Assembly (NCBI GenBank): GCA_964106915.2
Contig: OZ066925.1
Reading direction: 5' to 3' (one strand)
Source of the DNA: Podarcis gaigeae
Taxonomy: Eukaryota
Length of the DNA stretch: 64,000 nt
Shown: positions 16,183 to 29,106 of the stretch, piece after piece
Layout: every line of letters begins with the position of its first letter
How positions within the stretch are numbered: position 1 is the stretch's first letter
Made by a program: the position numbers and the translations under genes
The notes under the pieces: generated by a model
What the model was told of the DNA's origin: nothing
The model's database searches: none
What the model saw: only the letters and a program-made list of their open reading frames with translations

Positions 16183-16247
16183 GAGGCTTGCACTAAGAAG
16201 ATCAGATGTACAGGTTCAGCCCTTGAAAGTTTCCAATAGAAAATCAT
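16183..16247 (+). CDS. MPP7: MPP7 exon (HOOK, N-part) RLALRRSDVQVQPLKVSNRKS
   Basis: tttatag acceptor after a pyrimidine tract, gtaagt donor, 65 nt, phase 2-1; ends in a single T. Confidence 0.95.
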
Positions 16248-18316: not shown

Positions 18317-18672
18317 AAGGTAAAGGTAAAGGTACCCCTGCCCGTGCGGGCCAGTCTTGACAGACTCTGGGGTTGTGCGCCCATCTCACTTAAGAGGCCA
18401 GGGGCCAGCGCTGTCCGGAGACACTTCCGGGTCACGTGGCCAGCGTGACAAAGCTGCATCTGGCGAGCCAGAGCCACACACGGAAACGCCGTTTACCTTC
18501 CCGCTGGTAAGCGGTCCCTATTTATCTACTTGCACCCGGAGGTGCTTTCGAACTGCTAGGTTGGCAGGCGCTGGGACCGAGCAGCGGGAGCGCACCCCGC
18601 CGCAGGGATTCGAACCGCCGACCTTTCGATCGGCAAGTCCTAGGCGCTGAGGCTTTAACCCACAGCGCCACC
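18317..18672 (-). mobile_element. Sauria SINE
   Basis: (ACCTTT)n tail at the left end, GGTGGCGCTGTGGGTTAAA head at the right end, TSD TGACTCCTA (18308-18316, 18673-18681). Confidence 0.92.
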
Positions 18673-18846: not shown

Positions 18847-19188
18847 GGCGCTGTGGGTTAAACCACACAGCCTAGGACTTGCCGATCAGAAGGTCGGCGG
18901 TTTGAATCCCCGCGACGGGGATGAGCTCCCGTTGTTCAGTCCCGGCTCCTGCCCACCTAGCAGTTCGAAAGCACATCATGTGCAAGCAGATAAATAGGTA
19001 CAGCTCCGGCGGGAAGGTAAACAGCGTTTCCGTGCGCTGCTCTGTTTCGCCAGAAGCGGCTTAGTCATGCTGGCCACATGACCCGGAAGCTGTACGCCAG
19101 CTCCCTCGGCCAATACAGCAAGATGAGCGCCGCAACCCCAGAGTCGGCCACGACTGGACCTAATGGTCAGGGGTCCCTTTACCTTTAC
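18847..19188 (+). mobile_element. Sauria SINE
   Basis: GGCGCTGTGGGTTAAACC head, GGTCCCTTTACCTTTAC tail, TSD TAATTTGTGTT (18836-18846, 19189-19199). Confidence 0.92.
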
Positions 19189-21025: not shown

Positions 21026-21587
21026 GGCTAGAGGAAGTCTCTGGATGAAAGCAACAACCTGTAGACAACTTAACTTCAACTTAAGAGTGTAACCATTTCA
21101 AAATTACAATTGAAAACCCAGTGACTCTTATTTATGATGCTAAGCAGAACATGACTAGTTAATGTGTTGTTTTTTCACCCCAGGACTGGTACAAACCTTT
21201 CTGTCTCTTAAACAGTGTTAGGGGAGCATAGCCTTTGCATACACACCAAAAAACCTTATACATTTTGAAAGTGAGGTTCTGTCATTTCCTACTCCCATAA
21301 AAGAAATTGGGGTACAGGCTTTTGCAGCAAAATGTTGAACGTGCCGTGCATCATACTTCTGCAAAATATGCTCTTAACCTGTTCTTTATATTACTCAGCT
21401 CTGTTTTTCCCATTTTATTATGTGCTGAATATAATGTAAATCATGTCTGCTTGTCTTTTGGCTGTTCTAAGCTGAGGAAACAGTTGAGTGTGGTAGGTGT
21501 TTTACCCCCCCCCTTTTATTCTTCCATTATGTCTTCAGTCCATGTAATCACTTTGCATCCTATTTTTCCCCCTTTTGCGCTTCTCAG

Positions 21588-21599
21588 AGGAAATTGAAG
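21588..21599 (+). CDS. MPP7: Candidate 12-nt alternative microexon of MPP7, (x)EIE(E)
   Basis: Long pyrimidine tract with TGC motifs (ctttgcatcctatttttcccccttttgcgcttctcag), then AGGAAATTGAAG, then gtacat. Symmetric phase 1-1. GCATG/TGCATG downstream at 21835-21847. Confidence 0.5.
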
Positions 21600-22805
21600 G
21601 TACATGTACAAGTTTCCCTACTGGGCTGCAAGTGATGGCTTAAAAACTAAGCATTCTAGGTCATCACTGACTTCGAGGCAATTAGAAAATAATCCCTATA
21701 GATAGCAGTATATGTAGTCATAACAGCCAGTTGCTTTGTTGTTGCTGGAATTGTTGTTCCAGTCTTGAGAATCGTGGTAGCAGAAGACTGTGAACCTGTT
21801 GCTTTCTGCACGTAGTTCCTACAGCACAGTACTGGCATGTGTGCATGAAGATTCCTGTGGGGTAAGGCACAGGGATCCACATGTGTTATCCCATTGTCAG
21901 ATGTGGTTTCTTCCTTTGTATTTTTCCTTCTCCTCACATAGCAGGAATTTTGGGGGCCCAACAAACAGATCTGCCTGTTTCTGCACATGGGCCAAGTATG
22001 CAGAACAGGAGTGAATGTGTGCTAAAACCTCTGAATGTTAGCAAAGTAACATAACATAAGCAGATATGTTAACACAAGACATTTCCATGGAGCTAAAGAT
22101 GATGTCAGTCCTATTGTATGGCTCTAATAGATTATCTTTCTTAAATTCAAACTTTGACACTGAATAAAGTGGATCTTTTCCAGTCATTAGGGGTGCAATT
22201 TTGGAACACAGCTTGACAGATGCTTTACTGCTGTGGTGTCAATCTTTGGGGGACTTTTCACTTGCAGCATACATTTAAACAGTTGCAGCTCTATCTATAT
22301 CTATCTATCTGTATATACCCCAAAGCTGTAAAGTATTTTGTTAGACATTTGGTATATTAAAATAGGCACCAATACTATTTTATACCTAAGAAGTTATATT
22401 CATTAAAAATACCCTTTCTGTCTGATCCATTGAGCCAAATACAAAAACTCCTGATATTCTTTGTAGATTTCTTTACCTTTGTGTTTCAGCTGTTGTATTT
22501 TTTATCCTACATTAAAATATAAAGTAGAACACCTTTTAAAATCACTTCTTTATTTTCTGTCATGAATAAGGCAATAAAACAGTGAAAAGTTAAATATGCA
22601 TGTTGCTGTACTCCAAAATCTCTTGCTCAACTTCAGAACAACACAGTGATTTATTTTTAAGCAGTAGCATATTGAAGGCTTTTTATGCTGTGCTTTCTGC
22701 AGTTGTCATTTTTAAGTAACTCTTCTTTTGCATTCATGGCTGGGCATCTAACTATTCTGCTTTATTTCTTGGCTTTTGTTCTGTACGCTTTTACACTTCA
22801 TCCAG

Positions 22806-22847
22806 AGGAAGCTGAATGTGCTGGTCACAACAGTGGAGCCCACATAG
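22806..22847 (+). CDS. MPP7: Candidate 42-nt alternative HOOK exon of MPP7, (E)EAECAGHNSGAHI(A)
   Basis: Pyrimidine tract ending ttcatccag, strong donor TAG|gtgagc, symmetric phase 1-1. The peptide aligns without gaps to the MPP3 segment preceding GLRRSF (recalled as ETCDCEGYLKGHYVA). Confidence 0.72.
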   Translation, partial: RKLNVLVTTVEPT

Positions 22848-23162
22848 GTGAGCAGTTGCTTACAAAAGACTCTCTTTCTTTCTCAGCTTTTTCCTGGATG
22901 GCTACAGAGTTTGCAGGTAATGGGCATCACTGCATGCAATGAATCTGCTAGATTAAAAAATGGCTCACTGGATTTGACACAAAGGATCTGCATCCTAACC
23001 GCAACATATGTTACTAACATTGAAATATAGCATGCATTGAAATGCTACCTTGAATATGAGGAAATAATTTACTTGGGTAGAATTTGCAAAGAAATTTAAA
23101 TACTTGTCCTAGACAAAATGCTAGGCTGGCTATATTCCATCTGACTACATTATTTTTCTATC

Positions 23163-24680: not shown

Positions 24681-25652
24681 AATAATAGCAGTTCCACTGA
24701 TGACATTCAAATTAGCAACTTTAGTTGATCTCTTCTGTTGAAATATATATTTTCTTTAACTTAGTAGAATTGAGTAGGATGGATTATCAACCTTAACTCA
24801 CACTTTTTGTCATACAGAATAAAAATGCATAACTAGGCAATTATCATAAGATTATTCTGAGTAGTTCATGGGATGTGTGGAGATACACCATAATTCATAG
24901 ATAATGAGAGGGGGAGAAAACTCCATCACTACCTTTCCCTTCCTCCTACATACCTCTACCAGCAGGGCTCTATGAGCCTCCATGTAGGTGATACTTACAT
25001 ACCCTGAGGTATCTGCAGTCAGCCTGTTCAGTTTGGTATCAGTCTTGGCCCAGTATGTTCACTGATCTCCACTGTTCCAACCAGGATCTGAAGCAGGTTA
25101 GCAAGCGTTAGTTTAGAAGGGAACCTTGAGAGTGCCAATGCAGATGCACTCTAAGCTAAGGCTTGGAAGGAAACTTTTGCTGGAAAGTTGGAGGAAGAAG
25201 GGGAGACCATTGGGTCACTCCCAGTTTCTTAACTGGATACAGGGTGGAAGTGTTACCGCTTCATTCGGTTTTCATGAAATGTTATTTCTGGGATTCATAA
25301 TGTGAAACCACAGTGGTATCAGACATACAGAATAAAAACTTTTTAAAAGCCCTAGTCATATGTCAGGAATTGGGTGTACTGTTATAAGGTGGCCTCAGAA
25401 ATGAACTTCCTACAGCCTGGAGTTGTCCAGAAATAATTAACTATGTTTTTACTGTGCTAGTCAATGATATGGTGCTGGTTTAACAGAGAACTTGCTATTT
25501 GTCTATAATGTATGTCAAACTGTATTAAATTTGACACACAAAGCATGTATATCATTGTAGATTGTGAGCAGGGCTTTACCATTTATGTCTAAATGATACC
25601 TACTTTTTGTGAGATGTTTGCTGTTGATACTTATTGGAAACAATGGCTTGTC

Positions 25653-25708
25653 TTTTTCTCTATATACATTGAAGACAAAGGGTTGTCTTCAATGTATATA
25701 GAGAAAAA
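25653..25708. repeat. Perfect 26-bp inverted repeat with 4-nt spacer
   Basis: TTTTTCTCTATATACATTGAAGACAA-AGGG-TTGTCTTCAATGTATATAGAGAAAAA. Confidence 0.95.
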
Positions 25709-28148
25709 AGTGCATACAATTTTGAAAAAACAGTGATTGATATTAAAAGGGCAGCAGTGAAGGACAGAAGTTGAACTAATTTTCATGTGGTTTAATGGTT
25801 CAAACCATGTAGTTAAACTATTTTGTTGGTAGTGAACTGTTTGCATACTATTAAAAACAATAATTGGTTTCACCCTTTTGGAGAAAACTATTTAAATAGC
25901 TATTTATCAACATACTTAAAAACTCTATAAACTCAATATAAATACTGGTTTTAGTCTCCGAGAAGAATGGTGTGAGCCATTACCAGAAGAGGGGGTGTTG
26001 CTCCCTTTTGTTTCTACAGCTAGTTGCTAGGAACATGTTCAGTGTGTAGCATTTCTAAAGTGGTTGATTGCACTTGGAATAGTCTAACACTTTAACCTGA
26101 CCAGGAAGAGGGGATTAGCATTTGGGGGTGGGAAGTCCTGTTCAGTGTTTGCTAATTTGTTACAATCTAGTTTGATCATGAAATGGGATCAATGCAAAGG
26201 GTTCTGCACCCAGGAGCTGGCTTAATTTTCAGTGCCTTTCACTGATGATCTGTGGAACAAAACAGAGGACAAACAAAAAAGTTTTTGCTTTCCCTCAGGT
26301 ATGTACTTCTAGAGGGGAGCTTAAGCCTTTTGAGCAGCAACTATTCTTTTGTAGAGTAAGGAGGGGCATTCAGATACCCTCCAGGAGTGCCTCTCCGACC
26401 AGCAGGAAACAGGGTTAGCTTGCAAAGTTGACTCCACTATTGGAAGGAGCTACCAGGCTGCCATAAGCACCATGGAACCAGTGAAGGCCTTATTTGGTGC
26501 CCCCAGCTTTCATTTTTCAAAAGTACATGTCTCTACCCCTCCTAGGAAAAAATTATAATCAAAGTGTGCAGGTACCCTTCTAAGCACCAGGAATTTCTGT
26601 GAAATGATTAGCCAGTGAGTGAAGTGAGAGCTGTGATTGATAAGTGAGCTGTTTAGACACCAGGCAGTGGGAAAACTTGGGGCTCCAAATAGCTGCTGTC
26701 CCCCTTTAGTGCCCTTTTCCTGCTTCTGTCTTTTATCCTAGTCCTTGGATCCACCCAGCTGCTGCTCTATTTGTTTCACTTTGCTTCCTGCCATCCATAT
26801 AGAGCAGCTGCTTCAGAAACTCTTTGAAAATGTGGGAGAGGAAATCTGGGGATCCTTCCCATTGCTGCTTTGTTTGTTTTGCTGCCTATTGGAATGCAGA
26901 GTGGGTGGCTGCTTGATAGATGCCTCAGTAGAATACTGGGGGGGTGGGGGAAGGTTATGACAACCATTTGTTGTTCCTGCTACGTACCCTACAATGGGGA
27001 TTGTTCCAAAGTTGTTTGGGTGAGGGCAGTGCAGAGGCTTCATATTGATGGTGATAATAATTATCACATTTTCCCTGGTTCTTTTTTATGAGTGAGCAAG
27101 TGCATAAGTATTACTACTACTACCACCAACATCACCTTTTCCCTGCTTGTTCTCAAGTGTTGTTGTTTTGCCAGGGGTGGGACATTTCCAAAGAATCATT
27201 CTCATCATCACCTTTTCCTCTTGCCTGGCACACATCAAGGATTGTTCCCAAGTTGTTTGGGAAAGGGAGTGCTCAGTGCAAAGGCAGAAACACTATTACT
27301 GACATCTCTTCATACACCCCTTATTTCAACATCTACTCTGATGAGTTTTTTAAATAACTTTCCTTTGCATTTTCCTTCCATTTCTATTTGTTGTTGTTGA
27401 TGTTGTTGTTTATTAAATTTGTATACCACCCTCCATCTGACAATCACAGCTTTAAATTTTTGCCTATTCAGGTGTAGTGATTCAGAATTATTCCTGCAGC
27501 ATGTCAGAAGTATTGTATTCTCTGGCACATCAGCATGCTGGGATGCAGTTGTGATGGAGTTCAGGGTGGGAGTGATAGAATTCTTTGATGTTTATCTGTG
27601 TAACTCATTCATTTAAGGGACAAGACATTCCTGTGGCTCTATTAAAAGCAGTCACTATTGACTCTGAGCACTACCATTTTGTCTCACTGCTGCTCCCATG
27701 GTGTTTATGAAGGTTCTGGCCATACCAATAGTGCACCAGAGGATGCAAAGTATTGAAACGTAAAGAAGTATCAAGTGGCTTGAATTAAAGGTGATCATAC
27801 TGATACGTTGGGCTTTTCTAGGCAACATAAAAGGCAAGCAGATCTTGGTAAGGACAAGCAACAACTCAGTGAAGATCTGTCTCAGCAGTCAAGGAGGCAT
27901 GAGATCTATTTCCCATCATAAGAAGCCTGTCCTGGATTGCTCAGAGTAGAACATCTGACTCAAGTGACAAACACGACTGTAGACTGGATAAGCTATGTCG
28001 TCTAATATATTGACTGTTTCTCCCCTTAATTATATTTTATCTTGTGCCCCATTTAATGATGTATGTGTTATCAGAACAAAGCATATTGGTGTTGCAATGA
28101 TTAAAATGGATTTTTAATGTAATCCAAGACTGTAAAGCTACTAATAGG

Positions 28149-28239
28149 CATAGCTGTCAACGTTTCCCTTTTTTAAAAGGGAAATTCCCTTGTTCTGAAT
28201 AGGATTCCTTGCAAGAAAAGGGAAAAGTTGACAGCTATG
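28149..28239. mobile_element. 91-bp MITE with 9-bp TSD
   Basis: TIRs CATAGCTGTCAAC / GTTGACAGCTATG; perfect TSD ACTAATAGG (28140-28148, 28240-28248). Confidence 0.92.
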
Positions 28240-28935
28240 ACTAATAGGTTTTTAGAAACATTCATCGCTGTTGTTGACTTTCTTTGAACCAGTGTGGATG
28301 TCAAATATATGATCTCAGCTGGGAACGTATTTAGATAAAGAATGAGTGTCTTCTGTTGATTCTGCAAGCACTTATTAAAATATCAGTATCTGGGAGTTGG
28401 GGTAATTATCAGTATTTTGGGGGTAGGGATATCAGCAAATTTTGCAAGTCTGTATTACAAATGTGACATTTCCCCATATTTCTGTTCTCAGTGCTTAACA
28501 GAGATCTAGCCTGCTATACCAATATGATGTTTTTGTTTTTTAAAAAAATACATCATTCCTAATTTTCACCAGCAACCCATACACCTTGAAATTGGCACCT
28601 TTTGAATAAAAATAATTTGGTAATGTGATTAGGCCACAATCCTATCTAAAAACATAGGGGGACTTCAAAAGTAAACACAAAACAATGGAGATTAAAAAGA
28701 CGTCAAATTTCACCCCATGTGGCTCCCACATGCCCTTGCATGAGCCTAATCAAATATATATGGAAAACAATTTGGACTTTGAATTTGGTCCTTTAAGATA
28801 TAAGGAAGAAAAACTACTAAGTAACAAAAGTAACAAATGCCCATATGAAGGAGTGTTTGTTACAGATGGGCTACTGGCTAGGCTGATGACAGTAACCCTT
28901 GCTTCTGCTTCTTTTTTTAAATCTCGTAACTACAG

Positions 28936-29106
28936 CTGGTTTCAGGAGGAGTTTCCGTCTCAGCAGAAAAGATAGAAAAACAAACAAGACTATGTATGAA
29001 TGCAAGAAGAGTGATCAGTACGATACAGCAGATGTCCCAACTTACGAAGAAGTAGCAAAGTATAGACGACAGCCCAATGAGAAATACAGACTTGTTGTCT
29101 TGGTTG
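28936..29106 (+). CDS. MPP7: MPP7 exon (HOOK C-part, GK start) [12 protein letters not shown]...TYEEV...YRLVVLV(G)
   Basis: actacag acceptor, gtaagt donor, 171 nt, phase 1-1. Confidence 0.97.

Follow-up and report, generated by a model that had tools for sequence, protein, structure and literature searches.

Introduction

SRRM3/4-dependent neural microexons are 3-27 nt long, a multiple of three in length, and preceded by a UGC-bearing pyrimidine tract before the AG (10.1101/2024.09.17.613571). UGC between the branch point and the AG is described there as a typical feature of these exons, not a required one. It was reported for 79% and 74% of target microexons (10.1101/2024.09.17.613571) and is not necessary. 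For the retina microexons known as RetMICs, enrichment of UAG (MSI1) downstream of the exon is described as a tendency of the class (PMC9303857).

Several small exons of MPP7 have been catalogued in this context. In mouse (mm10), the 12-nt Mpp7 exon MmuEX6000123 is a RetMIC with PSI values of 93.1 for retina, 48.7 for neural tissues and 3.0 for all others (PMC9303857). A mouse Mpp7 exon of 21 nt has been assigned to the NEURAL-UP group, and its PSI values in islets are 0.13 and 0.40 (PMC8395343). In human, the PSI of the 12-nt exon HsaEX0039996 goes from 0 to 93 with SRRM4 in HEK293, and that of the 42-nt exon HsaEX1024120 goes from 0 to 57 (PMC7935315). The list of 314 SRRM4 targets from the same study, as contained in 12 of its 19 supplement files, has two MPP7 rows and no 21-nt MPP7 exon. 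In chicken, the 39-nt exon GgaEX0010525 is retina-enriched, with PSI values of 77.3 in retina, 33.7 in neural and 8.5 in other samples (PMC9303857). The RetMIC sheets of that source, across all 18 supplement files, hold neither the human nor the chicken 12-nt exon, so retina specificity is shown for the mouse exon only. No MPP7 rows were found in the supplements of PMC12626424 (12 files), PMC12626420 (12 of 13 files) and PMC12868881 (one file).

Here, we describe the likely counterparts of these exons in a lacertid lizard and the combinations in which they keep the reading frame open.

Results

The window analyzed is a stretch of 64,000 nucleotides from Podarcis gaigeae. Lacertid MPP7 proteins align to this 64-kb window as 14 collinear blocks between 5540 and 41861, and all exons and motifs given below are on the + strand. 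MPP7 is a cell-junction gene of the MAGUK p55 subfamily, and the Pfam domains of the matching proteins follow its L27-L27-PDZ-SH3-HOOK-GK layout. The HOOK linker starts in a constitutive 65-nt exon (16183..16247), which matches lacertid MPP7 to residue ~317 and ends in phase 1 on a lone T. Across an intron of 12.7 kb lies a second constitutive exon (28936..29106), which carries the basic GFRRSF motif and in which the guanylate-kinase-like region begins. The translation of this exon shows 100% identity to MPP7 of lacertids and gecko.

This intron falls inside the SH3-GK (HOOK) linker. The preliminary description had proposed a 12-nt microexon in it, which would splice into a 42-nt exon. The 42-nt exon was verified at 22806..22847; it begins with AG and is annotated in Podarcis isoforms. 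The 12-nt exon (21588..21599) encodes the core EIE, with a Glu codon formed at its upstream junction, and lies in the middle of a cassette of 21 + 12 + 42 nt that, when complete, adds 25 residues to the linker. The first member of the cassette, a 21-nt microexon at 21472..21492 (core EETVEC, AAG acceptor, GT donor, TGC at 21448), had been missed, and it must accompany the 12-nt exon to avoid a TAG. Its peptide is present alongside that of the 42-nt exon in Podarcis RefSeq isoforms P0040 and P0121-P0125. The intron between the 21-nt and 12-nt exons is 95 nt long (21493..21587).

A fourth small exon, of 30 nt (22887..22916), is used in lacertid RefSeq models (10 records from 4 species) and is annotated only in lacertid records, so that it is possibly lineage-specific. 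It starts 39 nt past the end of the 42-nt exon, and no record contains both. Since a gap of 39 nt is too short for the usual joining of both exons, the two are probably mutually exclusive. For the intron 5' of the exon at 22806..22847, the gene models of a rattlesnake (P0024), a turtle (P0108) and a finch (P0052) read through, and the 20-odd residues that result are nearly identical. This agreement suggests that the nucleotides around the acceptor of the 42-nt exon are strongly conserved.

The 12.7-kb intron contains several repeats. Two inverted copies (18320..18660 and 18855..19188) are 83-86% complementary and located ~2.3 kb 5' of the 21-nt exon, and they might form a duplex in the pre-mRNA; we take this repeat to be a Sauria SINE. 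A perfect inverted repeat of 26 bp, with a loop of 4 nt, is found at 25653..25708. At 28141..28247, 43-nt inverted arms, 81% complementary and 21 nt apart, look like a small transposon remnant.

The splice signals that had been claimed for the 12-nt exon were all verified. The intron upstream ends in a tract with 29 pyrimidines out of 35 (21550..21584), TGC is found at 21554 and 21576 (34 and 12 nt before the exon), the CAG acceptor ends at 21587, and a GT donor follows the 12-nt segment at 21600. In length and splice sites the exon resembles the SRRM3/4 microexons (3-27 nt, multiple of three, AG, GT). A UGC also lies within the strong pyrimidine tract before the AG. The donor matches the consensus at 7 of 9 positions, having no purine at +4 and no G at +5.

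To combine these signals, a filter was used that accepts a YAG acceptor, at least 16 pyrimidines out of 20, a TGC, no competing AG, a 7/9 donor and a length of 3-27 nt in threes. In the 64-kb window, the 12-nt exon was the sole match on the + strand and there were 0 matches on the - strand. On 30 block shuffles, the filter returned 0.03 matches per 64 kb. This rarity is supportive of the exon but is not proof, because the thresholds were chosen with the site known and the neighboring 21-nt exon fails them. A TGC by itself occurs in 22 of the 79 pyrimidine-rich YAG sites in the window and is not diagnostic. At 24963..24983, a 21-nt segment has a pyrimidine-rich acceptor and a 7/9 donor, without a TGC. 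Its peptide is missing from all 281 classified MPP7 records, and the segment is thus probably a pseudo-exon.

Downstream of the 12-nt exon, the GCATG and TGCATG motifs that had been offered as part of its architecture are present (21835..21847), with GCATG at 21835 and at 21843, the second inside TGCATG. However, their frequency is that expected by chance: TGCATG occurs in 17%, and two GCATG in 8%, of 300-nt windows. RBFOX-enhanced exons are recognized by motif enrichment in the proximal downstream intron, and here the motifs lie 236-244 nt away without enrichment. RBFOX control was dropped for this reason. TAG was counted 7 times in the 250 nt downstream of the exon, a single region for which the comparison is the window mean of 3.2 rather than a control set of exons.

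The 12-nt exon agrees with MmuEX6000123 and HsaEX0039996 in gene, in its length of 12 nt, in its place within the HOOK cassette, where the 21-nt and 42-nt exons flank it, and in having similar introns. The 12-nt length and this place define the orthogroup. According to published coordinates, the 21-to-12 intron is 122 nt in mouse compared to 95 nt in the window, and the 12-to-42 intron is 1336 nt in human compared to 1206 nt. Two mouse RefSeq records (P0219 and P0299) have the same peptide as the window except that the last residue is Lys, and most placentals have the core EIK where the window has EIE. These two mouse models (363-364 aa) reach the cassette through another upstream exon, do not contain L27, PDZ or SH3, and possibly reflect an internal start. 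Gene, length, order, spacing and peptide, rather than a DNA alignment, make orthology to MmuEX6000123 and HsaEX0039996 likely.

The preliminary description had stated that the 12-nt exon preserves frame. This is correct for its length, which is a multiple of three, but not for its use: when 16183..16247 is joined directly to the 12-nt exon, a TAG codon forms at the junction, whether or not the 42-nt exon follows. This TAG is made up of the T at the end of the upstream exon and the AG with which the 12-nt exon, like the 42-nt exon, starts. The direct junction was therefore rejected as a coding isoform. The 21-nt exon starts with CT and ends with G, and it opens the frame ahead of either the 12-nt or the 42-nt exon. 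It is the only tested exon that permits stop-free reading of either one. The four small exons can be combined in 16 ways. A stop occurs in six of these, namely all those in which the 12-nt or 42-nt exon is used and the 21-nt exon is left out, whereas ten are open. In contrast to the SRRM3/4 neural microexons, the 12-nt exon in the window is symmetric in length yet forms a stop if included alone. The stop is predicted at about codon 318, with six exons remaining downstream. By the general 50-nt rule, a stop at this position would trigger decay. No description of the stop-codon dependence of this cassette was found in a search of titles and abstract openings in the open literature.

To see how widely this arrangement is shared, 299 MPP7-like protein records were examined. 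Insert length served to classify 281 of them, and the remaining 18, which had no anchor, were set aside. The cassette is skipped in 88 of the 281 records. The 12-nt exon peptide is present in 105, always behind the 21-nt exon; this share is not a frequency, since a species may contribute many isoform records and one of the searches selected for the insert. The core residues are EIE in 50 records, EIK in 49, ETK in 5 and EMK in 1, and the window, with EIE, has the conserved E-I-E/K pattern. The peptide occurs in Rana, turtles, crocodilians, birds, platypus, echidna, marsupials, placentals including primates, and the gecko Sphaerodactylus townsendi. RefSeq MPP7 isoforms of 600/601 aa from frog, turtles, crocodilians, birds, monotremes, marsupials, placentals and S. 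townsendi have the same 21 + 12 + 42 (or 39) insert before GFRRSF. One S. townsendi isoform (P0135) has a 7 + 4 + 14 residue layout identical to that of the cassette in the window.

The junction residues allow the reading-frame dependence to be followed in these records. Glu is found at the junction of the 21-nt and 12-nt exons in 105/105 records with the 12-nt exon, meaning that the exon starts with AA or AG. Tyr is found at the upstream junction in 101/105, meaning that the upstream exon ends in T. Together, they imply that lone inclusion of the 12-nt exon would produce a stop across tetrapods. In the window, inclusion of the 42-nt exon alone also gives TAG, unlike the 13-residue form of other tetrapods, in which a 13-aa insert alone, with Tyr-Ala at the junction, is found in 46 records, none of them squamate. 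This 13-aa form probably arises via a tandem acceptor.

Squamate records rarely include the 12-nt exon. Of 22 lacertid MPP7 records, 6 skip the cassette, 6 have 21 + 42 and 10 have the 30-nt exon, leaving none with the 12-nt exon. Only one of the 10 squamate species with an annotated 21-nt exon also has the 12-nt exon (S. townsendi, 4 records), and among 24 records whose insert is 21 aa long, 21 are squamate. Inserts elsewhere in MPP7 were seen in other squamate records (P0047, P0043, P0027), namely 14 residues after residue 374 in Crotalus and 21 after residue 149 in Hemicordylus.

Similar inserts are present in paralogs. Fish MPP4 has an acidic run with similar spacing (DEEAFES, EELR and a 15-residue stretch) ahead of GFRRSL. 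Bird MPP3 (P0302, P0319) has equivalents of 7 and 14 residues as well as a skipped form, without the 4-residue piece. The likeness of these peptides and their spacing suggests that the cassette predates the MPP3/4/7 split. Among the few fish MPP7 records returned, none had the 4-residue piece, and it is the MPP4 likeness that would extend the age of the cassette beyond tetrapods.

Discussion

We consider it very likely that the 12-nt segment is a real exon and the ortholog of the catalogued exon. The preliminary description had called it unannotated, which holds for the lacertid records seen. However, mouse and human catalogues list the exon, and the annotations of many vertebrates include it. 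The 12-nt MPP7 exon is therefore already known from other vertebrates, and in the records seen it is the lacertid copy that lacks annotation. Likewise, the proposal of a neural or retinal SRRM3/4 microexon agrees with the ortholog data from mouse, human and chicken and with the annotated proteins, although it is not a new exon and the RBFOX motifs carry no weight.

Each of the motifs around the 12-nt segment is common singly, in line with a chance pseudo-exon within the intron. Yet the segment lies between two annotated exons, and in this position, in length and in peptide it agrees with an exon that tetrapod annotations share, and the combined signal is expected only 0.03 times per shuffled 64 kb, so we give this explanation almost no credence. 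An exon that has decayed in use is harder to dismiss. The 12-nt sequence might persist in lacertids as an ancestral remnant that is hardly spliced, with 21 + 42 being the squamate neural form. The absence of the exon from lacertid records, the predominance of squamates among records with the 21-aa insert and the nine of ten squamate species that have an annotated 21-nt exon and lack the 12-nt one are all in line with such a remnant. On the other hand, the tract, TGC, AG and GT are intact, the core EIE is the same as in frog, turtles, birds and platypus, and the exon is included in a gecko record. In addition, the mouse exon is retina-enriched, and exons of 12 nt would easily be missed without eye RNA. 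We find a remnant improbable for these reasons. Squamate use of the exon could nevertheless be rare, given 0/22 lacertid records and one in ten squamate species.

The stop codon raises the question of whether the exon acts mainly as a regulator whenever the 21-nt exon is absent. The TAG would then lead to nonsense-mediated decay, and the resulting lock would admit only ordered combinations and trim MPP7 at intermediate SRRM3/4 levels. Consistent with this, the TAG appears whenever a tested combination has the 12-nt or 42-nt exon but not the 21-nt exon, junction Glu and Tyr imply the stop in all lineages of the 105 records, and its position near codon 318, six exons from the end, fits the 50-nt rule. 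Nevertheless, the stop may be a by-product of having a Glu codon at a phase-1 junction. The co-occurrence in 105/105 records is not independent evidence either, as protein databases cannot store a stop-bearing form. Moreover, the human 12-nt exon reaches a PSI of 93 with SRRM4 in HEK293 although the 21-nt MPP7 exon is unlisted in the supplement files covered (PMC7935315), an unexplained result if the 21-nt exon must come first. The RetMIC class is also described as modulating proteins, not as triggering decay (PMC9303857). We regard a mainly regulatory role as unlikely, if still worth weighing.

A broader version of the same idea is that the HOOK cassette is a tetrapod-ancestral stop-codon lock, in which the 12-nt exon would act as a poison exon in every transcript that lacks the 21-nt exon as its key. 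SRRM3/4 dose would step the transcript through skip, 21, 21 + 42 and 21 + 12 + 42, decay would remove out-of-order products, and squamates would have tightened the lock. This is a speculative proposal that we doubt in its full form. If true, the squamate tightening would consist of the loss of the Tyr route into the 42-nt exon, which has been kept in turtles, archosaurs, mammals and a salamander.

The reading that we prefer, and hold with good confidence, is that the lizard exon is the ortholog of the retina microexon, that it would be SRRM3/4-driven and retina-enriched, and that it yields a TAG without the 21-nt exon. As an SRRM3/4-driven exon, it would be a weak, tiny exon whose recognition is promoted by SRRM3/4 via the TGC 12 nt upstream; we infer this use of the TGC because the human exon responds to SRRM4 and the class follows this rule. 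In most cells, the cassette would be left out entirely, for a protein of 576 aa. Inclusion of the 21-nt and 42-nt exons is predicted for neurons, and that of all three exons, giving 601 aa, for photoreceptors. This predicted order is drawn from mouse and chicken, with skipping in most tissues, partial inclusion in neurons and near-complete inclusion in retina.

At the protein level, the full insert would place 25 mostly acidic residues in the SH3-GK (HOOK) linker, directly before the basic GFRRSF. That the 12-nt exon adds acidic residues beside the basic HOOK segment had been proposed from the start, and the ortholog data and annotated proteins support it. Among the gecko isoforms, the linker has a net charge of +12 when the cassette is skipped, +6 with 21 + 42 and +3 with 21 + 12 + 42, so the 12-nt exon accounts for -3. 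The MPP7 SH3-HOOK region is reported to bind MPP5/PALS1, and HOOK regions to bind FERM proteins (reviewed in PMC12781724, PMC7662862). The insert would likely weaken or retune charge-based HOOK contacts. A structure model of P0135 built with 85 sequences is confident overall (mean pLDDT of 78), with residues 303-372, which include the insert at 317-342, unstructured at pLDDT <50; it is silent on insert contacts. No experiments on the function of the insert were found in the literature searched.

These findings also bear on how tandem microexons are classified. Length-based rules call the 12-nt exon frame-preserving despite the stop formed upon its lone inclusion, and tandem microexons should thus be judged by their junction codons. 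For lacertid lizards, the exon fills an annotation gap and extends a microexon catalogued in mouse and human to this family. The acidic insert, built in three steps and echoed in MPP4 and partly in MPP3, would provide a simple test of whether splicing tunes the HOOK region of a MAGUK protein in photoreceptors.
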